64,000 bases of DNA from Candidatus Falkowbacteria bacterium GW2011_GWF2_43_32. GTDB lineage: Bacteria; Patescibacteriota; Patescibacteriia; Patescibacteriales; UBA12465. Position 1 is the first letter of the stretch. Each line of letters begins with the position of its first letter. Below are positions 878 to 55,906 of this stretch, one piece after another. A program made the position numbers and the translations under genes. The stretch covers positions 3,139 to 67,138 of the forward strand of contig LCGL01000001.1 of NCBI GenBank assembly GCA_000999715.1, in the 5' to 3' direction. Below the pieces are notes generated by a model. The model did not search any database. It was given only the letters and a program-made list of their open reading frames with translations, and was not told where the DNA came from.

Positions 878-938
878 ATACGGGCTTCGGCCTCCGAGAC
901 CTCACATTTTTTTAGAAAATTGTGAGGATCGTTTTTTT
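878..938 (+). ncRNA. Candidate ~60-nt small RNA (promoter + two hairpins + U-tract), convergent with the 3' end of the PemK-like gene
   Basis: GGC-UUCG-GCC hairpin at 883-892; CCTCACA/TGTGAGG stem at 900-927, then ATCG + T7 (932-938). The T-run overlaps the toxin stop codon at 937-939. Confidence 0.3.
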
Positions 939-1353
939 ATAAAAGGCTTTTTATATTTCTGATAACTTCCCGAAAGTCTTTTTTCGGCAAGGTTCTAATC
1001 TTACGTGATAATCTTTTACTACTGATAAGCCGCAGTTGTGACAAAATAATTGAATAGATACGAATTCCGTCCTGAAAATGATAATAGAACCGGTCAATCT
1101 TATTTCTACTAGTCAGTGGCAAAACCCATAAAGACCCCTCTCCAAATTTTCTTAGAATCAAAACCGGCCTTTCATATTTATCATGCTTGCCATTTTGCTC
1201 ATAGCCAATATTTACTCCTAGGCTCGCCCACCAAATTTCTCTGGTTTTAAAATATACATTGTTTCTGTTATTTAAAAAATGAATCTGAGGCTTAAGTTTT
1301 GCCCAGTTTGCAAAATCTTTCTCCTTCTGATAATCAATTAAAAAATCCTCCAT
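937..1353 (-). CDS. PemK/MazF-fold toxin-like protein (orphan, with an N-terminal extension of about 35 aa)
   Basis: 138 aa. REIWWASLGVNIGYEQNGK..ERPVLIL resembles MazF GDLIWVDFDPTKGSEQAGHRPAVVLS; the C-terminal LSQLRLISSKRLSRKIRTLPKKDFREVIRNI matches the MazF C-terminal pattern. AT-rich gene. Confidence 0.65.
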   Translation of the reverse strand: MEDFLIDYQKEKDFANWAKLKPQIHFLNNRNNVYFKTREIWWASLGVNIGYEQNGKHDKYERPVLILRKFGEGSLWVLPLTSRNKIDRFYYHFQDGIRIYSIILSQLRLISSKRLSRKIRTLPKKDFREVIRNIKSLL

Positions 1354-1462
1354 ATTTTCTCATAAGATTAATGAATAAGATAATCTTATTATAAAATATG
1401 CAGGATAAAGTTTAGTTAAAATTTTTCTAAAGAAAAAGTTTATTTTTAGAAGTCAGCAAAAA

Positions 1463-1828
1463 TCAATCCCCTTTTTTCTTGAATTTCGTCTTGGGCAATA
1501 AGCAAGCGCAGGGCTTTTTCTTGAGAATCACCCGTTGTTCGGCCAGGGTCTGCAAAAAGACGTCCTGACCGCCTTGACCGCGCGCCAGGCGTTTGTCCAG
1601 GGGAGTGCGGTGTTGATAGCCGCGGCGAACAAACTCCTTGACCAGGGCCTCGTGGCGCTCATAGAGAGCCTTGGTTTTCCCGACCCAGCGCAAAGTTTCC
1701 GGATGACGCGAATAACCGCCCCGACCGCCGTGCTTGGTCAGGATATTCCATAAACCATGCAGTTCACGGTGTTCGGCCAGCAGGTGCTGACGGCAAAGAT
1801 GTTGCGGATTAATGTCCCAGATACGCAT
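1463..1828 (-). CDS. Pyrimidine dimer DNA glycosylase / T4 endonuclease V family protein
   Basis: MRIWDINPQHLCRQHLLAEHRELHG resembles the T4 EndoV N-terminus (..DQHLMAEYRELP..). The ORF track starts at GTG 1846; ATG 1828 (MRIW) fits the family N-terminus better. GC-rich compared with its neighbours. Confidence 0.7.
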   Translation of the reverse strand: MRIWDINPQHLCRQHLLAEHRELHGLWNILTKHGGRGGYSRHPETLRWVGKTKALYERHEALVKEFVRRGYQHRTPLDKRLARGQGGQDVFLQTLAEQRVILKKKPCACLLPKTKFKKKGD

Positions 1829-1845
1829 AGCATTAGAAAAAAGCA

Positions 1846-3426
1846 CTATTTATTTTTTATCATACTCTTAAAATATTTTCGCAATTCTTGATCTACGATA
1901 AAGAGATAAGTGCCCTTCATGCCGCGCGTTAATAATGTTCTGTATATATTAATAATATATGCTTCCAACTCTTTTGGGTTATCGATTCCCTTTCTCCCAT
2001 TTACATCTTTGTAATTCTCCGGATGAATGACAAATTTTTTATTCTTCTTATCATAAGATAACTCCGGGCCAATTATTACTCCGGCATAATTAAGGTCATA
2101 ACCTTGCACCGTATGAATACAGCCAACCTCATTAATGGCATTAGCAGAATTGACCCAATTATGATTAACGCTATTCCAAAATAATTTTATTCCGTTAATC
2201 TCTATATCGTGTTTGTCGGGGTTCTTTTTCGAAACCCACGGCCAAGCGTAACCGGAAATCATCCTGCATAAACCTAATTTTCTATCCTTGCTCTTTATGT
2301 CATCGCGCATTTTCGCGATATTATCATAAATTTTGAAATCGTATTCTAAAAATTCAGACTTACCAGTGCTATTTAAATCAAATAAATTTTGTATAAAATC
2401 AATATATTTCTCACTCTCTTCGCCGACATCAATGCGTAATTGATTTTTTAATCTAAATTCCATGGCTCCTAATTCTAAGAATTTACCGCCGTTAACATCC
2501 GACGGACGAACGCTCTGACGTTCATCGTAAAAAAGTATTTGATGAGACGACGATTTAATAATCCAATCCAACTCCGTACCATTTTTCCCAAGGCCCAGCA
2601 CCTGATTATTTTTATCAAAACTGCGATAATTGGTAATATTTTTCCTTTTTCGCAATCTATGAGCTTCGTCAACCACCAATATATCATAACGACCGCCGAC
2701 CACCTCGCTCGGTCCGATGACCATGTCGGACCGCAAACCGGCAATATTTTTAAAAACTTTTTTAAGACTCCTCCGCAATGAAGTCATCGGAATCACCAAG
2801 GCGGCTTTTTTATTTTTTGTCTCTTTTAAATCACTGAACAATTTGAACAGATGCATGGCAACGATTGTTTTCCCCGTCCCCGGGCCGCCATGTACGATAA
2901 AAGTCTTAGCCAAACTATTTTTTATTTCATCAATCAACTGATTTTCAATTTTTAATTGATCTTCCGTTAACGCTTTGTAAGGCGAAAATTTAAACAAATC
3001 GCTATTCTTTATTTGCACCAAACTTTTTTCCGCCAACAACATTTTCTGCAATTCTTGCCATATAATCTCAAATTTGGCTCTGTACTTCTGCTTATCATAG
3101 TAATTATGGTCAAACAAACCATGATTACTATTTTGTATTATAAACTTACCGTCAGCCGCAAAATGTTGAATGAGCAACGACTCAATATCCAATGTCGCGG
3201 ATTTATTATATTCTTCATCAGATATAACATGTATCCTTTTTAATTTTGCTCTCTCGGGACGGTCATAATGTTGTTTACTGCGACTGTAAACATTAATCGT
3301 TTCGCCCACATAAATTTCCTGCTTGTTTTCAATAAGATAAACGACCGGCCAATTACGACCGAAAACACATGACCTAATTTGATCAAATTGATTTTTAACA
3401 AACGGAAAAGTCTGTATTTGAGACAT
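1846..3426 (-). CDS. GIY-YIG nuclease-like domain fused to a DUF2075-type (Schlafen-like) P-loop NTPase/helicase-like protein
   Basis: 526 aa. N-terminus VVYLIENKQEIYVGETINVYSRSKQH (GIY-YIG-like); Walker A GGPGTGKT; Walker B DILVVDEAHRL; C-terminal IHTVQGYDLNYAGVIIG and LTRGMKGTYLF (SF1-like motifs). Strongly AT-rich. Confidence 0.7.
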   Translation of the reverse strand: MSQIQTFPFVKNQFDQIRSCVFGRNWPVVYLIENKQEIYVGETINVYSRSKQHYDRPERAKLKRIHVISDEEYNKSATLDIESLLIQHFAADGKFIIQNSNHGLFDHNYYDKQKYRAKFEIIWQELQKMLLAEKSLVQIKNSDLFKFSPYKALTEDQLKIENQLIDEIKNSLAKTFIVHGGPGTGKTIVAMHLFKLFSDLKETKNKKAALVIPMTSLRRSLKKVFKNIAGLRSDMVIGPSEVVGGRYDILVVDEAHRLRKRKNITNYRSFDKNNQVLGLGKNGTELDWIIKSSSHQILFYDERQSVRPSDVNGGKFLELGAMEFRLKNQLRIDVGEESEKYIDFIQNLFDLNSTGKSEFLEYDFKIYDNIAKMRDDIKSKDRKLGLCRMISGYAWPWVSKKNPDKHDIEINGIKLFWNSVNHNWVNSANAINEVGCIHTVQGYDLNYAGVIIGPELSYDKKNKKFVIHPENYKDVNGRKGIDNPKELEAYIINIYRTLLTRGMKGTYLFIVDQELRKYFKSMIKNK

Positions 3427-3430
3427 GATT

Positions 3431-3778
3431 TTATAATTGATTATATTTGTAATATTTTCCCTTAGCCTTGCCGACAGGATATTTATCTGCGTTTTTTAAT
3501 ATTTTTTTCTCCAACGCATCGTAAATATCAATATCCAAATCATGAGCCATAAGTAAAACCCAACCCAAAACATCGGCTAATTCTTCCCCTATTTCGCTTC
3601 TATTATCCCTAATGTAATTTTCTAAAACAGCTCCATTTTTCCATTGGAAGTGCTCCAAAACCTCGGCCGCTTCAAGAGCTAAAGACAGGGCCATATCTTT
3701 AAGATTATGAAACTGCTCCCAATCTCTTTCATTACGGAAAGCTAACAATTTATCAGTCAAATTTTTTATTTCCGACAT
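3431..3778 (-). CDS. MazG-like nucleotide pyrophosphohydrolase (all-alpha NTP-PPase, dCTPase-like)
   Basis: LALEAAEVLEHFQW and EIGEELADVLGWVLLMAHDLDID acidic metal-binding motifs. The ORF track start at 3793 is TTG; the first ATG is at 3778. 4-nt gap to the next gene. Confidence 0.75.
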   Translation of the reverse strand: MSEIKNLTDKLLAFRNERDWEQFHNLKDMALSLALEAAEVLEHFQWKNGAVLENYIRDNRSEIGEELADVLGWVLLMAHDLDIDIYDALEKKILKNADKYPVGKAKGKYYKYNQL

Positions 3779-3871
3779 ACATTTACGAATCAAAATATTC
3801 TTAGAAACATTTTATATTTTACTTATCTTTATTTAATAATCTCATAAACTACGGCAAAAGTCAAAAATAAA

Positions 3872-13105: not shown

Positions 13106-14497
13106 TTAAAACTCCGCGTTCTTCGGCGTGCGCGGAAACGGAATGACATCGCGGATATTGGCCATGCCGGACAAGTACATAATCAATCTTTCAAAACCCA
13201 AACCGAAGCCGGCATGTTTGACCGAACCGTATTTGCGCAAATCCAAATACCAGGCGTAGTCTTCTTTTTTCAAGCCCATCTCCTCCAGCCGTTTTTCCAG
13301 TTTTTCCAAACGCTCTTCCCGCTGACTGCCGCCGATGATTTCCCCGATGCCCGGCGCCAGCAAATCCATGGCCGCCACCGTTTTTCCGTCTTCGTTCAAG
13401 CGCATATAAAACGCCTTGATATCCTTGGGATAATCACTGACAAAAACCGGCTTCTTATAAACCTTATCGGTCAAATAACGCTCGTGTTCGGTTTGCAAGT
13501 CAATTCCCCATTTGACCGGATAAACGAATTTTTCGCCGGATTTTTCCAAAATTTCAATCGCTTCGGTATAGGTGATACGCCCGAAAGAAGAATTCAAAAT
13601 ATTATCCCAGCGCGTCGCGATACCCGGCTCGATGAATTTGTTGAAAAATTCCATTTCTTCCGGCAATTCTTTCAGAATATAGGCGACCAGATATTTCAGC
13701 ATTTTTTCCGCCAAAGCCATGTCGTCGTTCAAATCCGCAAAAGCCATTTCCGGCTCCATCATCCAAAATTCCGACGCATGACGCGTCGTATTGGAATTCT
13801 CGGCGCGAAAAGTCGGACCGAAAGTATAAACTTTATTCAAACCCATGATCAAAGCTTCGGCGTTAAGCTGACCGCTGACGGTCAAGCCCGCTTTCCGGCC
13901 GAAAAAATCGGCGGCGTAATCGATTTCGCCCTTGGCGTCGCGCGACGGATTTTTTAAATCCAAAGTCGTGACCTGAAACATTTCCCCCGCACCTTCGCAA
14001 TCGCTGGTGGAAATAATCGGCGTCTGGATATAAGAAAATCCTTCTTCTTGAAAAAATTTATGAATGGCAAAAGACAAAACCGAACGCAAACGGAAAACCG
14101 CGGAAAAAGTATTACTGCGACCGCGCAGATGAGCGATGGTGCGCAGAAATTCAAAGCTATGCTTTTTTTTCTGCAAAGGATAATCGGCCGGCGCTTCGTT
14201 CAAAATCGTAATTTGCTTGGCTTTCAATTCAAAGGCCTGACCGGCGGCCGGCGAAGCCACCAATTCCCCGCTCACCGTTAACGACGAGCCGACGCCGATT
14301 TTTTCCGCCGCGGCAAAATTAGCCAAGTCCGTGCCGAAAACTATCTGCAAGCCTTTAAAAAAAGAACCGTCGTTTAATTCAATGAAGCCGAAATCTTTGG
14401 AAGCGCGGGCCGTTCGCACCCAGCCGGCCACGGCGATTTCTTTATTCAAAAAAGCGGCGGTGTCTTGATATAATGATTTGATTAAAATAGAAGACAT
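13106..14497 (-). CDS. asnS: Asparagine--tRNA ligase
   Basis: Class IIb motifs ([30 protein letters not shown]). Start set at ATG 14497 (MSSILIK). Confidence 0.9.
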
Positions 14498-14557
14498 AAT
14501 TTTTTTTAATTCTAAAAACCGATTGACGAATTTACCGACTACCGCCACCCGACCGAT

Positions 14558-15865
14558 TTAGGGGGTGAGCCTCTTCACGTCGCGCGGCAAGAAACAGGCC
14601 TCTTTGACGCTGTTCAGACCCAACATTTTCATGATAATCCGACCCGGCCCCATGCCGATACCGCTATGTTCCGGACAACCGTAACGGAAAAAATTCAAAT
14701 AATCTTTCAGCTCCTCCAAATTCATGCCTTTGTCCACGGCTTGTTTTTCCAACACTTCTATTCGATGTTCGCGTTCCGATCCGGTGGTTATTTCCAAACC
14801 GCGATAAAGCAAATCGAAACTTTTGGTCAAACCCGGATTGTCCTCGTGACGTCGATGATAAAAAGGTCGCGCCGCAATCGGATAATCGGTGACAAAAACA
14901 AAATCATGACCGGTTTCTTTTTTGATGATCGCGCCCAATTCTTTTTCTTCTTCCGTGGAAAAATCCCAATCTTTCTCGCCCTTGATTCCGGCCGCCCGTA
15001 ATTTTTCTTTCGCCTCGGCCAAAGTGATTTTCGGAAACGGCTTGGCCGGCACAGTTATTTCAAATTGCGATCCCAAGGCTTCCCGAACTTTTTCAAAACC
15101 GGAAATCAACAAATCTTCTTGCATGGACATAATATCCAAATAAGAAGCGTAGGAAACTTCCATGTCCCAGCCGGTAAACTCCGTCACGTGTCGGGTGGTA
15201 AAAGACAGCTCGGCGCGGAAAACCGTGCCGACCATGAAAACTTTCTCCAAACCGGAGGCCATGGCCATCTGTTTATAAAATTGCGGCGACTGCGCCAGAT
15301 AAGCGGAGCGATCAAAATATTTCACGGCAAAAACTTCCGCACCGCTTTCCGAAGCGGTACTCATCAAACAAGGCGTATAAATCTGAATAAAATTATTTTT
15401 TAACCAATATTCCCGACAGCCCTCTTCCAATTTCGTCCACACTTTAAAAATCAACTGATGCTCCGCCGGCCGCAAATCCAGCCAACGCCAATCCAAGCGA
15501 TTTTCTAAATTGGCTTCATTATCGGCTTTGGTGAGCACGGGAATGGGCAAATTTTCCTTAGCCAAAGAAATCAAACGCGCGTCCGTGGCGGCCAATTCAA
15601 AATCCTTGATCGGATTGGGGTCGTTTTTTTTGGTCGGCTTGGCTTGCAAATTGCCGGTCACCTCCACGACGCTTTCCAGAGTCAATTTTTCCGCCAATTC
15701 ATAGCCGCCTTGGCCGGCCGCGAAAACAATCTGCATCGTTCCCGAAATATCCGTCAAATCCACGAAAACCAAACCTTTGTGTGCCCGTAAATTACGCACC
15801 CAACCGGAAACGGTCACTTCCCCGGTCTCCTGTTTTTTCGCGTCTGTGATTAAAATTCTTGACAT
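14558..15865 (-). CDS. aspS: Aspartate--tRNA ligase, short archaeal/type-2 form
   Basis: 435 aa; FRAELSFTTRHVTEFTGWDME, GIGMGPGRI; lacks the bacterial insertion domain. Confidence 0.85.
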   Translation of the reverse strand: MSRILITDAKKQETGEVTVSGWVRNLRAHKGLVFVDLTDISGTMQIVFAAGQGGYELAEKLTLESVVEVTGNLQAKPTKKNDPNPIKDFELAATDARLISLAKENLPIPVLTKADNEANLENRLDWRWLDLRPAEHQLIFKVWTKLEEGCREYWLKNNFIQIYTPCLMSTASESGAEVFAVKYFDRSAYLAQSPQFYKQMAMASGLEKVFMVGTVFRAELSFTTRHVTEFTGWDMEVSYASYLDIMSMQEDLLISGFEKVREALGSQFEITVPAKPFPKITLAEAKEKLRAAGIKGEKDWDFSTEEEKELGAIIKKETGHDFVFVTDYPIAARPFYHRRHEDNPGLTKSFDLLYRGLEITTGSEREHRIEVLEKQAVDKGMNLEELKDYLNFFRYGCPEHSGIGMGPGRIIMKMLGLNSVKEACFLPRDVKRLTP

Positions 15866-15933
15866 ATAACGAAATTAATTCCGGCTCATCGAGAACCTGA
15901 ATTTATTAAGAAATAGCTTATTTATCTGTTTAA

Positions 15934-15962
15934 ATTTTACCTGATTTTGGGGATTTTAGCAA
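15934..15962 (-). promoter_or_regulatory. Candidate promoter TTGCTA-N17-TAAAAT for aspS
   Basis: On the minus strand, TTGCTA at 15962..15957, 17-nt spacer, TAAAAT at 15939..15934; lies directly after the recO terminator. Confidence 0.4.
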
Positions 15963-15976
15963 GCGGGCAAAACAAC

Positions 15977-16003
15977 AAAAAAGGTCTGATCTTGACCTTT
16001 TTT
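15977..16003. terminator. Rho-independent terminator downstream of recO
   Basis: AAAAAAGGTC-TGATCTT-GACCTTTTTT symmetric hairpin with flanking A/T runs. Confidence 0.55.
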
Positions 16004-16090
16004 CGTTTCGCGATACCGGACCGAAATATTTGACAATATCGGTATTTCTTGATTGTCGAATTTGAGATATAGCTCAAAAAGCGCTATTTC

Positions 16091-16861
16091 CTAAATATAA
16101 TTCAAAAAACAATCAATGATTTTTTTAGCTTCCTTGATCAAAGCGGGATTGGCTTTGATTTTCAGCTCTTGGCTGTCTAAGAGATAACGAATTAATTTAA
16201 CACAATTATCGGAAATAATCAATAAATCGGTCGACAAAACCTCTTCTTCGGTTTTCTTTTGTTCCCGACAAGTATCGCAAACCAAACCGCCGCCCTTAAG
16301 ATCGAAAAAATTCCGACCGGCGACTATCGGCCGTCCGCAAACCAGACAAGTTCTCATCTCCGGCACATAACCCAGCTCCGCCAAGAGCTTTAAAGCGAAA
16401 AAACTATAAAATAATTCCCCGTCGCCTTGGCTCAATCCCTGGGCCGAAGACTCTTTCGTCTGAGAATGCCGTTTTTCTTGAAAATCATTCAAAACGTCCA
16501 ACCAATCGCGCAATAAAAAAAACAGACGCTCGTCCGGATGACCTTCTTTGACAAATCGGCTGAAAAGATTGAGCGCCCGACCGGCGTAATATAATTTATT
16601 CAAATCGTTTCTGATGCCCGCATAAGCAGCTCGCGTCACGACACTGCCGGCATAATCAAAAGTTTTACCCGGGATAATTAAAAAATCCGCCCAGGTCAGC
16701 GGTTCAATGTGGCCGGCTAATTTGGATTGCAATTTTTTTACGCCGCGAACCACGAGCGACAAACGCCCGTAATCGCGGGTATAAACCGTCACCAAAGCGT
16801 CATATTCGCGATATGGCTGACGATTTAAAATTATGGCCGGCGTATTTTTGGTTGCGTCCAT
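16091..16861 (-). CDS. recO: DNA repair protein RecO
   Basis: OB-fold N-terminus (AIILNRQPYREYDALVTVYT..GR) and CxxC..CxxC zinc motif (CLVCGRP..CDTC). Confidence 0.85.
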   Translation of the reverse strand: MDATKNTPAIILNRQPYREYDALVTVYTRDYGRLSLVVRGVKKLQSKLAGHIEPLTWADFLIIPGKTFDYAGSVVTRAAYAGIRNDLNKLYYAGRALNLFSRFVKEGHPDERLFFLLRDWLDVLNDFQEKRHSQTKESSAQGLSQGDGELFYSFFALKLLAELGYVPEMRTCLVCGRPIVAGRNFFDLKGGGLVCDTCREQKKTEEEVLSTDLLIISDNCVKLIRYLLDSQELKIKANPALIKEAKKIIDCFLNYI

Positions 16862-16869
16862 AGATTAAA

Positions 16870-16996
16870 CTTTCAGATAATGCTTTCGAGGAGCGAATAT
16901 TTTTTCGTAAAGAAAAATTTAGCTAGCCGCCGGCAGGCGGATGGATAAATTTTTCCACAGAAAAAATCCTGAGCGGAGGAAAGCATTATCCGGAAG
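16870..16996 (+). ncRNA. Long-hairpin intergenic element, copy A (strand assignment tentative)
   Basis: 18-bp outer stem (16 WC, 1 U.G, 1 A.C); conserved loop GAGGAGCGAAU / ..UGAGCGGAG; 8-bp A/U stem; loop GUAAA/CACA; apical stem with CCGCC-GGCA-GGCGG. Fills the ruvX-recO spacer. Confidence 0.5.
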
Positions 16997-17034
16997 CTTA
17001 AAACTTTTCTTTTAATTTCGAATTATAAAACAAA

Positions 17035-17418
17035 TCAATTTCTGTCCAAATAATCCTGCAAAATAAGCGTGGCGGCGATTTCATCGCGCTCCGCTTTTTC
17101 CGTTCCCTGCCCGTCCAAAGAATCGGCCGCCAAACTGCTCAAGCGTTCGTCAACCAACTCCACCAATCGACCGCTCCGCTCTTTCAATTGCTCCAAGAAA
17201 CTGAGCCAAAGCGGATTGTCGGCCGCCTCGCCGCTCATTTTAGTCGGAGCGCCCAAAACCACGATATCGGTTTTTTCTTCTTTCATTACTTTTAAAACAT
17301 CCGCCAAAGTTTCCACCGTCTCCAAAGGCAAAGCCAAATTGGTTTCGCCGTCAGCGGTCGCCAAACCGATTCTTTTTTCCCCCCAATCGATACCCAAGTA
17401 TTTTTTAGTATTTTCCAT
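17035..17418 (-). CDS. ruvX: Holliday junction resolvase-like protein RuvX/YqgF
   Basis: YLGIDWGEKRIGLA N-terminus and GEAADNP motif typical of YqgF. Confidence 0.85.
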   Translation of the reverse strand: MENTKKYLGIDWGEKRIGLATADGETNLALPLETVETLADVLKVMKEEKTDIVVLGAPTKMSGEAADNPLWLSFLEQLKERSGRLVELVDERLSSLAADSLDGQGTEKAERDEIAATLILQDYLDRN

Positions 17419-17439
17419 ATAAATTATAATCCATTCTAG

Positions 17440-17569
17440 ATTTGCAAATCAAAATTATGTTTTAAGGAGCGATTGTTCTTTTCGTAGAGCAACCTTTATT
17501 CACCAACCGGCGAATAAAGTTTGCCACAGAAAAGAACTAGCGGGAAAAACATGATTTTGATTTGCAAAT
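17440..17569 (+). ncRNA. Long-hairpin intergenic element, copy B (strand assignment tentative)
   Basis: 24-bp outer stem (one U.G); loops AAGGAGCGAUU / UAGCGGGA; stem GUUCUUUUC/GAAAAGAAC; loop GUAGA/CACA; variable apical stem. Fills the map-ruvX spacer. Confidence 0.55.
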
Positions 17570-17586
17570 TTATTAACTTGATTAGA

Positions 17587-18417
17587 TTATTCAGTCAAAA
17601 TTTCGACTCCCTTGTCCGTCACCGCCACAGTATGTTCAAAATGCGCGCTTAAAGAGCCGTCGGCGGTCAAAATCGTATAACCGTTATCGGCCGTGACGAC
17701 GCGCCAATCGCCGATATTGATCATCGGTTCAATGGCGATAACCATACCCGATTTCAAAACAATGTTCTCCGGCGCTTTGTCGTTAATAGCGAAATTAAAG
17801 ACGTCCGGCGCTTCATGGGCAAAATAGCCGACGCCGTGTCCGACCAAGTCGCGCACCACGCCATAGCCATGCTTTTCGGCCTGTTGTTGGACGGTGCGGC
17901 CGATATCGTTAAGCCGCGCGCCCGGCCGAACGGCTTTAATCGCCAAGGCCAAACACTCGCGGGAAACGCTCAACAATTTTTTGGCTTCGACGCTGATTTT
18001 TCCCGCCGGGACGGTCACGCAAGTGTCGGTAAAAAAGCCGCCGAATTTAGAATGCGGATTAACGGGCGCCTGATATTCGGCTCTCAGCTCCGCGGTTATC
18101 GGCCACTCCATGCCGATATCCAAGTCAACAATATCGCCGGACTGAATCACGCGATTCGGCCAGGCCGCCCCGTGCACGACCTCGTTATTGATGGACACGC
18201 ATAAAGTGGACGGAAAAAACAAACCGCCCCCCAAAGGATAGTTTTTAAACGCCGAATGACCGCCGGTTTCCGTAATTAATTTATTGGCCAAGTCTTCCAA
18301 ATAAGCGGTTTCCACTCCGGGCCGCACTTCCGCGGCCAAACGCGCTAAAATGGCGGCCAAACGCCGGCCGCCCTCTTTGATAATCTTGATTTCCGCCGCT
18401 GTTTTAAGATAAATCAT
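17587..18417 (-). CDS. map: Type I methionyl aminopeptidase
   Basis: Metal ligands in VVHG, DIVDLDIG, GHGVG, IEPM, FEHTV. Confidence 0.95.
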   Translation of the reverse strand: MIYLKTAAEIKIIKEGGRRLAAILARLAAEVRPGVETAYLEDLANKLITETGGHSAFKNYPLGGGLFFPSTLCVSINNEVVHGAAWPNRVIQSGDIVDLDIGMEWPITAELRAEYQAPVNPHSKFGGFFTDTCVTVPAGKISVEAKKLLSVSRECLALAIKAVRPGARLNDIGRTVQQQAEKHGYGVVRDLVGHGVGYFAHEAPDVFNFAINDKAPENIVLKSGMVIAIEPMINIGDWRVVTADNGYTILTADGSLSAHFEHTVAVTDKGVEILTE

Positions 18418-19081: not shown

Positions 19082-19132
19082 AGTAATCTCGATTAATAAA
19101 TTTCAAAAGATATATTTATTATATCATAAAAA

Positions 19133-19154
19133 ATAACGGCCAACCAGCCGCTAT
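19133..19154 (-). terminator. Rho-independent terminator after secY
   Basis: On the minus strand, AUAGCGGC-UGGUUG-GCCGUUAU (one G.U) followed by a U6 run. Confidence 0.55.
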
Positions 19155-19187
19155 TTTTTATTTTATATTAAACAAAATATATCAAAA

Positions 19188-20459
19188 TTAGAGTCCGTCA
19201 TACTCCCGCATGGTCAATTGGGATTCAATCTGCTTGACGGTTTCAATCACTACTGAAACGACAATCAACAAGCTCGTGCCGCCGATGGACAAAGCCTGAA
19301 TGCCGGTAAAATAACGCATCACCAGCGGTAAAACGGCAATCAAGCCCAAAAATAAAGCGCCGACCAAAATGATTTTATGAGTAGTCCCGGACAAATATTC
19401 TTCGGTATTCTTGCCCGGTCGGATACCGGGAATAAACCCACCTTGCTTCTGTAAATTCTCGGCGATTTGTTTGGGATGAAAAACGACTTCGGTATAAAAA
19501 TAAGTGAAAGCGAACACCATCAAAAAGTAAATGATGCCGTAAAATAATTGATTGTTGAATAACTCTATCGTTCCGGCCGCAGCCCGGGCAATCCAGGCTG
19601 TCTTCGCGTGAATGAAAAACTGCGCAATCATGGACGGAAACAACACCACGGAAATGGCGAAGATAATCGGAATAACGCCGGCCATATTGACGCGCAAAGG
19701 CAAATGCGAACTGGTGCCGCCATAAGCGCGGTTACCGCGAATCTGCCGCGCGTATTGCACCGGCACGTTACGTTGACCTTCATTAATAATAACGACGCCG
19801 ACTACCGTAATAATGGCGATAACGACGAAACCGATCAAAGTGAACAGTTGCGCCTGATCAAAAGTGATAATCAATTGTCGGAGAATCTGCGGCAAGCTGG
19901 CGACGATACCGGCGAAGATGAGCAAAGAAATACCGTTACCGATTTTCTTTTCGGAAATCAATTCTCCGATCCACATCAAGAAAATCGAACCGGCGGTAAT
20001 GGTCATGATCATAATGCCGAAATCCAACGGCGTAATCGTGCCCAAAATGGCGGCCGAACTGCGACGCAACAAGGTAATCATGCCGTAAGCCTGCAAAGCG
20101 CCCAACGGTACGGTCAACCAACGCGTCCACATATTGATTTTCTGTTGTCCGGCCTCCTCTTTCTGCATCTCTTCAACGGACGGAACAATCATGCCTAACA
20201 ATTGAAAAATAATGGATGAAGTGATATAAGGAGCGACGCCCATCATCACGATGGAAAAATTCTCCATGCCGCCGCCGGAAAACAAATTCATCAAACCTAA
20301 AATCTGATTGGAGGCGAACAAATTTTTTAAGGCCACATAGTTTACGCCGGGAATCGGAATATGAGCCGCCAAACGAAAAATAACCAGCATCGTCAAAACG
20401 AACAGAATGCTGTTCCGCAGATCCTTAGCCTTCCAGATTTGCGTTAGTTTATCAAACAT
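19188..20459 (-). CDS. secY: Preprotein translocase subunit SecY
   Basis: 423 aa, 10-TM pattern with typical SecY motifs; spc-operon position. Confidence 0.95.
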   Translation of the reverse strand: MFDKLTQIWKAKDLRNSILFVLTMLVIFRLAAHIPIPGVNYVALKNLFASNQILGLMNLFSGGGMENFSIVMMGVAPYITSSIIFQLLGMIVPSVEEMQKEEAGQQKINMWTRWLTVPLGALQAYGMITLLRRSSAAILGTITPLDFGIMIMTITAGSIFLMWIGELISEKKIGNGISLLIFAGIVASLPQILRQLIITFDQAQLFTLIGFVVIAIITVVGVVIINEGQRNVPVQYARQIRGNRAYGGTSSHLPLRVNMAGVIPIIFAISVVLFPSMIAQFFIHAKTAWIARAAAGTIELFNNQLFYGIIYFLMVFAFTYFYTEVVFHPKQIAENLQKQGGFIPGIRPGKNTEEYLSGTTHKIILVGALFLGLIAVLPLVMRYFTGIQALSIGGTSLLIVVSVVIETVKQIESQLTMREYDGL

Positions 20460-31898: not shown

Positions 31899-32258
31899 TT
31901 ATTCTTGAATTTCTCGCGCCTTGTCTTTCACTTGCGGCGGAATTTGCCAAGCCTGTTTAGGCTTGTTTTCCTCGGTCGCGGAAGACAAATCATCCCGATT
32001 TTTCCACATCGAGATTTCGCGATTAATTTTATCAGTTAAATCTTCTTCTGTCAAATTTTCCGTCTGATCGGATTTTACCTCGGATTTGGCGGAAACTGGG
32101 GAAAAATTACCTGAATTTCCTGTTGCCGCCAGTTCGCTATAATTGTCAAAATTCATGATAACATAAGAATCGTCGGGGGCATTGCCGTCAAACACGATTA
32201 CCCGATCGCCGGTTTTTTTCACTAAATTTAAAATTTTTTTTAACTGCTCTGGGAACAT
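31899..32258 (-). CDS. Hypothetical protein inserted between fusA and tuf (N-terminus loosely Phd/YefM-like)
   Basis: 119-aa ORF. DRVIVFDGNAPDDSYVIMNFDNYSEL resembles the YefM ..[23 protein letters not shown] pattern; acidic, disordered C-terminus. Confidence 0.45.
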   Translation of the reverse strand: MFPEQLKKILNLVKKTGDRVIVFDGNAPDDSYVIMNFDNYSELAATGNSGNFSPVSAKSEVKSDQTENLTEEDLTDKINREISMWKNRDDLSSATEENKPKQAWQIPPQVKDKAREIQE

Positions 32259-32267
32259 ATAGTAAAT

Positions 32268-32385
32268 GTAAAATTAGAAATTGTGTTTTAAGGAGCGATT
32301 GTTCTTTTCGTCCAGCAAAATTTAGCGATAGCTAAATTTTGCCACAGAAAAGAACTAGCGGGAAAAACATAATTTCTGATTTTAC
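32268..32385 (+). ncRNA. Long-hairpin intergenic element, copy C (strand assignment tentative)
   Basis: 22-bp outer stem with a different sequence from copy B but still fully paired (two G.U on the plus strand). Loops and inner 9-bp stem identical to copy B; a different, still perfectly paired 12-bp apical stem. The right arm overlaps the fusA stop. Confidence 0.55.
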
Positions 32386-34460
32386 TTCCCTTTCTTTTCC
32401 TTAATCGCTTCTAAAATATTTCTTGGCACTTCGGCGTAATGAGAAAATTCCATGACATAACTGGCGCGCCCTTGACTCATGGAACGCAAAGACGTGGCGT
32501 AACCGAACATTTCCGCCAAAGGTACTTTCGCCTTAACCACTTTCACGTTGGCACGATCGGTCATTTCTTCAATCTGGCCGCGCTTGCTGTTCAAATCGCC
32601 GATAATATTGCCCATATAATCCTCCGGAGTAACCACTTCCACTTTCATAATCGGTTCCAACAAAACGGCCCCGGCTTTCTGACAAGCGTCTCGGAAAGCA
32701 AAAATAGCCGCCATTTTAAAAGCAATTTCCGAAGAATCAACTTCATGATAAGAACCGTAGAATACGGCCGCTTTAATATCCACCATCGGATAACCGGCCA
32801 CACCGCCGGACAGCAACGCTTCCTTGACGCCCTTTTCAATCGCCGGAATATATTCGCGCGGAATAACGCCGCCTTTCACTTCGTCCGCAAATTCAAAACC
32901 CGAACCGGCGGGCAAAGGCTCAATCCGTAAAGAGCAATGACCGTACTGACCGCGTCCGCCCGATTGCTTAACGTATTTATTCTCCGCTTCCGCTGTTTTG
33001 GTAATGGTTTCCCGATAAGAAACTTGGGGGTTGCCGACATTGGCTTCCACGCCGAATTCCCTTTTCATGCGATCAACAATAATTTCCAAATGTAATTCTC
33101 CCATGCCGGAAATCAACACCTGATTGGTTTCTTCATCGCTCTCCACGCGGAAAGTCGGATCTTCTTCGGCCAAGCGCTGTAAAGCGACGCCCATTTTTTC
33201 TTGATCGGCTTTAGTCTTCGGTTCCACGGCAATCTTAATGACCGGCTCCGGAAAAGTGATGGATTCCAATAGCAAAGGCACGGCTTCATCGCACAGCGTA
33301 TTGCCGGTTGTCGTATTCTTCAAACCGATAACCGCGGCAATGTCGCCGGCATATATTTCTTTGATTTCTTCGCGATGGTTGGCGTGCATGCGCACCAGAC
33401 GACCGATTCTCTCTTTAGTTCCTTTGGAAGAATTGGTGATATAAGATCCGGCCGATAAAACGCCCTGATAAACTCGCACAAAACACAATTTACCGACAAA
33501 AGGATCGGTGGCGATTTTAAACGCCAAGCCGATAAACGGTTTATCGTCGTCGGCTCTGATCGGGACTTTCTTTTCCGGATCGCGCACATCGCTGGCTTCG
33601 ACTTCCGGTACGTCCAACGGAGACGGCAAATACTCGGTCACGGCATCCAAAACCAATTGCACGCCGATATTTTGCAAAGCCGTTCCGCACAAAACCGGAT
33701 AAATAATATTGGCAATAACGCCTTTTCTGATAGCCGCTTTCAGCTCATCCAAAGATATTTCCTGACCGGCTAAATATTTTTCCATGGTCGCTTCATCGCA
33801 TTCCACGGCTTTTTCCACCAATTCATTGTAATATTGATCCACTTTTTCCTTCATGTCTTCCGGCACGGGAATTTCTTCAACATTGACGCCGTTCACGCCG
33901 GAAAATTTATAAGCCTTTTTGGTCAACAAATCAATGATGCCGCTGAGATTGTTTTCCGCACCGATAGGCAATTGTACGGCCACGGCTTTTTGATTCAAGC
34001 GCGTCCGAATTGACTGTAAACTCATATAAAAATCCGCGCCCATTTTATCCATTTTATTAATGAAACAAAGACGCGGAACCTGATATTTATCCGCTTGCCG
34101 CCAAACCGTTTCCGATTGCGGCTCCACCCCGGCCTGACCGTCAAAAACCGCCACCGCGCCGTCTAAAACGCGTAAGGAACGTTCCACTTCCACCGTAAAA
34201 TCCACGTGTCCGGGAGTGTCGATAATATTAATTTTCTTATTTTTCCAAAAACAAGTTGTGGCCGCCGAGGTAATCGTGATGCCTCTTTCTTTCTCCTGCT
34301 CCATCCAGTCCATTTCCGCCGCGCCCTCGTGCACTTCGCCGATCTTGTGTTTTTTACCGGTATAAAAAAGAACGCGCTCGGTAAAAGTCGTTTTGCCGGC
34401 GTCGATGTGGGCCATAATGCCGATGTTTCTAATGTTTTCTAAAGCGTAGTCTCGGGCCAT
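32382..34460 (-). CDS. fusA: Elongation factor G
   Basis: [21 protein letters not shown]; 692 aa. Confidence 0.97.
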
Positions 34461-34546
34461 AATTATAAAATTATTTATTGAAATTGAAATTGAAAATTGA
34501 TTATTTTTGAGTAGAATTTAGAAAGAAATCACAAGTTAAAGAAGTT

Positions 34547-34650
34547 AAATTTTGAGACGGATTTAAGGAAAAGACGAGGAGCGAACCGAGCCGTATTAAC
34601 ATACGGCGAGGGAGAACCGGAGTCTTTGACGAAAAAGCCGACCAAAATTT
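34547..34650 (+). ncRNA. Degenerate relative of the long-hairpin element (copy D)
   Basis: Outer stems AAATTTTG/CAAAATTT and AAAGAC/GTCTTT; 5' loop GAGGAGCGAA conserved; central GCCGTA-TTAACA-TACGGC hairpin; lacks the 9-bp stem and the GUNNA/CACA loop. Confidence 0.35.
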
Positions 34651-55903: not shown

Positions 55904-55906
55904 CTT

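Follow-up and report, generated by a model that had tools for sequence, protein, structure and literature searches.

In a 64-kb stretch of the genome of Candidatus Falkowbacteria bacterium GW2011_GWF2_43_32 (hereafter the window), three long imperfect hairpins, referred to as copies A, B, and C, lie between genes, and our analysis suggests that they are probably copies of a new low-copy, non-autonomous palindromic DNA element of ~120-140 bp from Falkowbacteria-like Patescibacteria, which would be comparable in type to the ERIC, REPIN, and Correia elements. Copies A and B nearly fill the recO-ruvX and ruvX-map spacers, as had been described in a first-pass annotation of this DNA, and the third copy listed there, C, likewise exists at 32266-32387. 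All genes around hairpins A and B, recO, ruvX, and map included, are encoded on the minus strand. The first-pass annotation regarded the hairpins as a selected RNA structure rather than as copies of the type formed by miniature inverted-repeat transposable elements (MITEs). This interpretation is not supported, as the orthologous junctions are empty in relatives, the strand on which the element lies is random, and copy A has flipped in place.

The comparison with related loci and contigs, to which we refer by L0xx labels, shows that the elements are inserted DNA, placed in tiny junctions between co-directional and otherwise abutting genes. At all four sites that could be compared, the junction is tiny and empty in relatives and filled in one genome. 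The map-ruvX junction comprises 168 nt in the window, and it consists of TAA-aaat-ATG (4 nt) in L036 and of 39 nt in L039; the ruvX-recO junction comprises 173 nt in the window, compared with 4 nt in L036 and 1 nt in L039; and the fusA-ORF119 junction comprises 123 nt in the window, compared with 6-21 nt in L023, L026, L029, and L031. At the DUF2304-GT4 junction, it is the syntenic contig L012 that is filled (~137 nt), and the window has an empty junction of 3 nt (55904-55906). The element is present in some relatives and absent from others, and ~158 kb of related loci contained no copies except those of the L034 strain. Gene order around the copies is conserved (recO, ruvX, map, fusA, tuf), and wherever the context is readable, the copies lie between co-directional genes, with the base of the hairpin within 0-22 nt of the flanking stop and start codons. 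The flanks beside the conserved part are mutual inverted complements in C, B, L002, L013, L014, and L018. The outermost 6 bp at site C (GTAAAA/TTTTAC) seem to have been present in the target beforehand, as GTAAAA ends fusA and a related TTTTAC spacer is found in the empty junction of L031, and this single site hints at an insertion into the middle of short palindromes rich in AT or, alternatively, at outward growth of the palindrome.

The orientation of the element relative to the flanking genes is random: six of the 13 copies are antisense to them (A, B, C, L011, L014, and copy B of L034), and the other seven are sense (L002, L012, L013, L016, L018, L021, and copy A of L034). Moreover, copy A shows that the element can invert in place and that its two arms change in concert. 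The window and the L034 strain are 97.9% identical over 11.3 kb, and copy A is only 91.9% identical; the interior of the L034 copy is the reverse complement of that in the window, and the spacer upstream of the hairpin has not moved. The same 1-nt shortening is seen in both arms (ATAATGC/GCATTAT in the window vs ATAGGC/GTCTAT in L034). The distal arms of the L034 copy are perfect complements (AAGCTTCCGG/CCGGAAGCTT), and the downstream arm in the window differs at three positions. Each of the two states was found in independent samples (L040 and L041 vs L034 and L035). Such changes in both arms at ~2% divergence are far more easily explained by DNA arm recombination or template switching than by point mutations selected in an RNA. 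At the fusA-ORF119 site of L016, the flanks align to the minus strand of the window and the core to the plus strand, and the apex is of the L002/L021 type, that of window copy C being of the L013/L014 type; judged from these alignments, the L016 copy seems to have been inserted independently at this site or to have replaced an earlier copy there. Two independent Logan contigs (L035 and L041) start at one and the same base in copy B, at the end of a 33-nt stretch that is identical in B and C. A break at this position is expected because the assembly used k=31, and we rejected these contig ends (L035:1, L041:1) as signs of mixed orientation and regard them as repeat-induced assembly breaks.

Copies A, B, and C have the architecture in common that had been described for them (Table 1). 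An outer stem P1 of 20-27 bp is followed by an asymmetric loop 1, with (A/G)AGGAGCGA(A/U)U on its 5' side and (CC)U(G)AGCGG(GA/AG) on its 3' side, a U/A-rich stem P2 of 8-9 bp, a loop 2 with GUNNA on the 5' side and CACA on the 3' side, and a variable apical stem-loop P3; the elements measure 120-141 nt. The AGGAGCGA motif sets the polarity of copy A, which is antisense to the operon in the window. The 3' strand of loop 1 in copy A is a variant that recurs in copy A of L034, and L018 has CCUGAGCGGGA at this position. Conservation peaks in the core and drops both outward and toward the tip: mean pairwise identity is 0.81-0.90 in loop 1 (0.94-0.98 within the main subtype), 1.00 in the 3' CACA of loop 2, which is invariant in all copies, 0.82-0.86 in P2, and 0.81-0.84 in the proximal 11 bp of P1, and it falls to 0.43-0.48 in the locus-specific distal 9 bp of P1 and to 0.50 in P3 and the apex. 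The earlier statement that the outer stems differ between copies thus holds for the distal 9 bp, which are free to vary as is the apex, and does not hold for the 11 bp next to the core.

The family is real in the sense that conserved internal loops are combined with stems that stay paired despite changes on both sides. In the model alignment, 95.6% of the cells are standard pairs, compared with 42-54% when the partners are slid, and both-side changes occurred in 23 of 43 pairs; P2 contains clean double changes, for example GUCAUUUUC/GAAAAUGAC in L012. The covariation on which the RNA interpretation was founded could thus be confirmed as strong paired double changes, but it is not proof of a selected RNA, because arm-to-arm conversion in a palindrome can yield the same changes. 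Comparisons between genomes indicate that the element is more similar than its surroundings. Between copy C and the L016 copy, identity amounts to 86.7%, with 64 core nt being the same, compared with 77.7% for their flanks, which include the tuf start; copy C and the copies in L013 and L014, which lie at unrelated loci, are 89-90% identical, and identity is 60-71% for the genes that these genomes have in common. This means that the element moves between genomes, that its core is under purifying selection, or both. The changes that distinguish the window and L034 since insertion are confined to apex and arms, with none in the conserved loop positions or P2, and all four substitutions in copy B lie in P3.

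Table 1. Positions of the hairpin copies, their structural parts, and the adjacent genes in the window.
Feature	Position	Strand	Details
Copy A, whole element	16863-17003	+	Covariance-model match 88.9 bits, E 1e-19; minimum free energy (MFE) -50.9 kcal/mol; z against dinucleotide shuffles -6.2, and -6.7 on the other strand
Copy A, outer stem P1, 5' arm	16865-16887	+	Pairs with 16979-17001; 23 nt, 87% complementary
Copy A, loop 1, 5' strand	16888-16898	+	GAGGAGCGAAU; conserved core, 90-98% identical across copies
Copy A, P2	16899-16906 with 16960-16967	+	From the fold; interior spans 16899-16967
Copy A, loop 2	16907-16911 and 16956-16959	+	GUAAA and CACA; from the fold
Copy A, variable apical stem-loop P3	16912-16955	+	From the fold
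Copy A, loop 1, 3' strand	16968-16978	+	CCUGAGCGGAG; from the fold
Copy A, outer stem P1, 3' arm	16979-17001	+	From inverted-repeat search and fold
Copy B, whole element	17437-17572	+	Covariance-model match 130.1 bits; MFE -60.4 kcal/mol; z against dinucleotide shuffles -10.4, and -9.8 on the other strand
Copy B, P1	17437-17463 with 17546-17572	+	27 nt, 93% complementary
Copy B, loop 1, 5' strand	17464-17474	+	AAGGAGCGAUU; from the fold
Copy B, P2	17475-17483 with 17529-17537	+	GUUCUUUUC with GAAAAGAAC; from the fold; interior spans 17475-17537
Copy B, loop 2	17484-17488 and 17525-17528	+	GUAGA and CACA; from the fold
Copy B, apex P3	17489-17524	+	From the fold
Copy B, loop 1, 3' strand	17538-17545	+	UAGCGGGA; from the fold
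Copy C, whole element	32266-32387	+	Between fusA and ORF119 (119 aa, upstream of tuf); covariance-model match 134.2 bits
Copy C, P1	32268-32289 with 32364-32385		
recO	16091-16861	-	Pfam RecO_N and RecO_C; downstream neighbour of copy A
ruvX	17035-17418	-	Between copies A and B; PF03652 in the 98% identical P0121
map (methionine aminopeptidase)	17587-18417	-	Pfam Peptidase_M24; upstream neighbour of copy B

A covariance model built from ten copies was run on the window with all filters off and E<=10, and in the 64 kb it matched A, B, and C only; two different motif patterns also matched exactly these three copies, with 0 matches expected by chance. In the 41 loci compared, the arm motif is confined to the copies. 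The degenerate fourth copy D that had been annotated at ~34500-34650 gave no match in the run with the covariance model and was rejected as a family member by the model and by alignment; it folds differently and is a separate hairpin. This hairpin of ~95 nt occupies the rpsG-fusA spacer (34545-34650). L023 and L031 carry it in the same spacer and orientation, and L026 and L029 lack it. Among the three sequences, 10 of its 33 pairs have changed on both sides, and it has only GAGGAGCGAA in common with copy A. It may represent another, older hairpin insertion or a fusA leader. Upstream of secY (19097-19190) lies an AT-rich imperfect palindrome with 44-nt arms that are 73% complementary, which scores 18 bits with the family model merely by being a hairpin. 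The comparison with Rfam matched no family, tRNAs included, when the whole window was searched at gathering thresholds, and at E<=10 the only matches were to generic-hairpin plant microRNAs, with 17-33 bits vs cut-offs of 83-144.

Outside the window, an exact-pattern scan of one genome per species yielded one true copy, upstream of trmD in a Patescibacteria metagenome-assembled genome (L002), and a scan of JGI metagenomes yielded seven further copies (L011, L012, L013, L014, L016, L018, and L021, the last one truncated). The L034 strain adds orthologues of A and B, which brings the total to 13 copies; the ten found beyond those of the window are all in Patescibacteria contigs. As the scans demanded exact core motifs, divergent members are undercounted. 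Matches in L010, L015, L017, L019, L020, and L022 were recognized as chance pattern matches in GC-rich contigs, and L001 and L003 were discarded as chance pattern matches as well. A viral origin was rejected, as a looser scan of IMG/VR gave six matches that were all unrelated, GC-rich, and formed no hairpin. In the literature that we searched, there was no relevant description of repeats, MITEs, or REPINs in Patescibacteria.

For the proposed palindromic DNA element, we suggest the following mechanism. Recombination between the arms of the palindrome, or template switching in it, would keep the stems paired, extend them into locus-specific sequence, and flip the interior, and a large share of the apparent covariation would thereby arise with no need for selection on an RNA. 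The part under selection would be the invariant asymmetric core, which consists of loop 1 (AAGGAGCGAWU/UAGCGGGA), P2, and loop 2 (GUNNA/CACA), and this core may serve as the recognition module for a hypothetical trans-acting factor that mobilises or otherwise binds the element. Most likely, this factor would be a mobilising enzyme that acts on one folded single strand, which would account for the weak G.T/G.U polarity of the copies. As the copies lie inside operons, they presumably form long hairpins in the operon transcripts, regardless of their orientation. If this is correct, selfish or semi-domesticated palindromic DNA is active even in the streamlined genomes of Patescibacteria, which are tiny and have very short gene junctions, and a hairpin repeat still inserts and flips there. 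RNA discovery should take note as well: a palindromic repeat of this kind would be mislabelled as a structured RNA if covariation statistics were the sole criterion, because arm-to-arm conversion of DNA can mimic strong covariation. If a new mobilising enzyme or RNA-binding protein indeed uses the core as its handle, the core would offer a route to that protein.

Several observations weigh against a mobile element. The 64-kb window contains no gene for a transposase or recombinase, nor is there one next to any of the copies, and the mobilising activity is therefore hypothetical. The copy number is low, with three copies in the 64-kb window, and the strict pattern matched once in the whole L002 genome and eight times in 241 million metagenome records. 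The copies have no consistent direct repeat that could represent a target-site duplication, and the outermost termini are not conserved while the flanks extend the palindrome, which is not explained by classical MITE transposition. Copies B and C did not change their orientation in any close strain examined. Furthermore, P1 contains 12 G.U/U.G pairs vs 2 A.C pairs when read on the motif strand, and this bias together with the conserved core would fit a functional RNA.

Among known systems, ERIC sequences are the closest analogue. They are imperfect palindromes of ~127 bp for which no transposase is known and which are found, in either orientation, between the genes of transcription units. The likeness concerns the size (120-140 bp), the single long imperfect hairpin, the position in spacers inside transcription units, the occurrence in either orientation, the presence or absence at orthologous sites, the lack of a known associated transposase, and the fact that copies are more alike between species than the flanking genes. 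Nevertheless, the element is not an ERIC member: there is no sequence resemblance, as judged by eye against the consensus core only, the phylum is another one, the copy number is much lower, there is no TA target duplication, and an internal asymmetric core is conserved instead of the whole element. ERIC has been listed among the presumed MITEs, and REPINs, which are hairpin-forming REP doublets mobilised by RAYT transposases, have been described as conserved inverted blocks with a less conserved hairpin-forming spacer in which compensatory changes are common (PMC3116915). The internal logic of our element resembles that of REPINs, as identity is 0.8-1.0 in the core blocks and 0.50 in the apex with pairing kept, and for REPINs, a hairpin is predicted in single-stranded DNA or mRNA and a strand-specific recognition is plausible (PMC3116915). 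However, the element does not appear to be a member of this group either. No RAYT (Y1 HUH transposase) was found within the 64-kb window, the conserved blocks are not inverted copies at the loops (AAGGAGCGAUU vs UAGCGGGA), and there are few copies per genome instead of tens to hundreds. REPs typically carry a GTAG/CGTC head (PMC3733652), whereas GTAG is found in three and CGTC in four of the 13 copies (7/13 together); loop 2 reads CGU-NN-AG, and these counts are about what two free positions give.

Correia/NEMIS elements are short intergenic insertions that are co-transcribed with adjacent genes and whose inverted repeats form RNA hairpins that can be cut by RNase III. With these and other MITEs, the element has in common that short non-coding intergenic insertions carry inverted repeats that form hairpins and are polymorphic at orthologous sites. 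MITEs have conserved terminal inverted repeats and direct target-site duplications, whereas in the element the outermost 9 bp of the termini are locus-specific, next to 11 bp that are 81-84% identical between copies, and the flanks are inverted complements. Integron attC sites likewise lie between genes and fold as single-strand hairpins, in which stems are combined with an unpaired part in the centre and a terminal structure that varies. However, the hairpin bases of the element lack RYYYAAC/GTTRRRY boxes (as judged by eye), no integrase accompanies the copies, their neighbours are conserved housekeeping genes whose order is conserved as well, and the orientation is not fixed.

The first-pass annotation had seen in the hairpins hints of small RNAs antisense to the operons. 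In a specific form, the AAGGAGCGA strand of each copy, which is antisense to the operons of the window, would be the gene of a small structured RNA, with loop 1 as a kink-turn (K-turn) for a protein of the L7Ae/YbxF type; we consider this to be very unlikely. It would agree with core loops that are near-invariant while the stems vary, but it is hardly compatible with sites that are empty in relatives, with more than half of the copies being sense to their flanking genes, and with the inversion of copy A between strains that are 97.9% identical: because copy A flips in place while its flanks stay, the unit cannot include a promoter that lies in the flank. The promoters themselves were not found. 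A consensus scan of 16700-17700 detected no plus-strand site that resembles a promoter, with 1.5 such sites expected for both strands together, nor any terminator-like site, and the hexamers that had been noted as -10-like on the plus strand do not exceed chance and lie in AT-rich DNA that abuts the start codons of minus-strand genes. The suggested strand bias of G.U pairs is weaker than had been claimed: it is seen in P1 as a whole, and in copy A it is not, where the P1 fold on the plus strand has one U.G and two A.C. The P1 position next to loop 1 has changed from G-C to G.U in four copies, in 11 of 12 copies the fold of the motif strand is more stable than that of its complement, and over the plus-strand fold, the ratio of G.U to A.C is 25:6, with 6 G.U vs 4 A.C in the apex. 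The test depends on the counting method, since folding both strands freely gives 25 vs 30 G.U. A replication-linked mutation bias as the cause of plus-strand G.U was rejected, as the negative plus-strand GC skew predicts the opposite. With ~p = 0.01 before shared ancestry is considered, the strand polarity is suggestive of a recognition of one folded strand, be it single-stranded DNA or RNA. The K-turn signature of helix, AAG bulge, and tandem G.A/A.G can be written for 8 of the 12 complete copies and fails in the other four, namely in L011 (GGAA), in L013 (GGUA), and by a register slip in copy A and L034 A (GGAG-G); the 2n G is an A in L011, a U in L013, and displaced in the two A copies. In addition, the closing pair is U-A, and 3b.3n would be G.G. 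An alternative register of loop 1 with AGCG opposite AGCG, which is the MFE prediction, is equally possible, and as the loop 1 columns are otherwise invariant, covariation cannot choose between the registers. Also the expected binding partner was not seen: among the ~37 window proteins scanned, ORF119 included, there was no match to PF01248 or another domain of the L7Ae/L30e type and no member of the L7Ae/YbxF family. A broader interpretation has more to recommend it and is still improbable in our view: the invariant asymmetric core, with its K-turn-like loop 1, P2, and the GUNNA/CACA loop, may be a strand-specific folded module of RNA or single-stranded DNA that is read by a protein of Patescibacteria, which would imply either a structured mobile RNA or single-stranded DNA element of a new class or a spreading functional non-coding RNA that tolerates either orientation. 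The weak G.U polarity, the core conservation above that of the tuf-adjacent coding DNA, and the low copy number fit such a module.

The first-pass annotation offered minus-strand intercistronic processing or stability hairpins as its alternative. About as improbable is the related idea that the operon transcripts need a long intercistronic hairpin in either orientation, as an RNase III site, as an mRNA stabiliser, or to bring stop and start codons into proximity once an insertion has occurred. The position of the hairpins at the stop and start codons of co-directional genes agrees with this idea, and the fusA stop codon (32382-32384) even lies inside the outer stem of copy C, with the ORF119 start at 32258; furthermore, the stems, with their 20-27 bp, are stable whichever strand is folded, the genome does without Shine-Dalgarno sequences, and the junctions of 1-4 nt in relatives are typical of coupled genes. 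However, co-directional spacers are the majority in the genome anyway, relatives manage without any hairpin at the same junctions, and neither the invariance of the asymmetric loops across genomes nor the random orientation would be explained. Effects on operon mRNA are possible side effects of the insertion, and they are likely consequences and not the reason why the family exists. The inversion at site A, together with the occupation of site C in opposite orientations in two genomes, could also point to a programmed invertible DNA switch (inverton), in which a site-specific recombinase flips the core between the outer repeats and thereby alters the expression of neighbours. We regard this as highly improbable, as a recombinase gene is missing from the window and from the surroundings of every copy, the invertible part contains no promoter, and one orientation per strain was found in every assembly examined, with B and C never differing; the Logan breaks in B come from the 33-nt repeat common to B and C, and the inversion of A came with extra sequence changes and looks like a rare recombination accident. 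An inserted palindromic DNA element whose arms recombine thus is the interpretation that we favour.

The AAGGAG in the core resembles a ribosome-binding site, and its complement CUCCUU could be thought of as an anti-Shine-Dalgarno decoy. Both ideas were rejected because the genome shows no Shine-Dalgarno use: a purine-rich motif is found upstream of only 3 of the 68 starts in the window. The upstream regions in the window show simply a high AT content, and in relatives, many of the junctions between genes measure 1-4 nt. A small open reading frame started by AAGGAG was also rejected, as the frames are not conserved (4 codons in B, 8 in C, and 25 in L002).

On the minus strand at 17423-17452, there is a promoter-like TTGATT-18-TATAAT that is partly formed by the copy B arm and ends 4 nt before the ruvX ATG. 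The insertion of copy B may thus supply a promoter for a near-leaderless ruvX, which is a single site and not above chance expectation. The ORF119 gene next to copy C (31899-32258, minus strand, between fusA and tuf) encodes a protein of 119 aa with 294 homologues, of which the named ones are almost all from Patescibacteria. It has no significant Pfam match, and the labels in the sources are inconsistent ('L30E', 'YefM antitoxin'). An assignment of ORF119 as L7Ae-like, for which one homologue labelled L30E by JGI could be cited, was rejected, as Pfam did not support it.

Other features of the window are independent of the hairpins. The non-coding gap of 225 nt after recO (15866-16090) is the place where the synteny between the window and L034 ends; in L034 and L036, recO is immediately followed by a gene for a DUF5663 protein. 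In the part of the window with the lowest GC content (0.39 vs ~0.46), a minus-strand cluster (937-3793) encodes a MazF/PemK-like toxin, a pyrimidine-dimer glycosylase, a helicase of the Schlafen-group-3 type, and a MazG-like protein, and this cluster may be a defence or repair islet. Two adjacent minus-strand genes (13106-14548 and 14558-15865) encode class II aminoacyl-tRNA synthetases of the Asp/Asn/Lys type with tRNA-synt_2 and OB anticodon domains, and the same tandem pair is present in L039.

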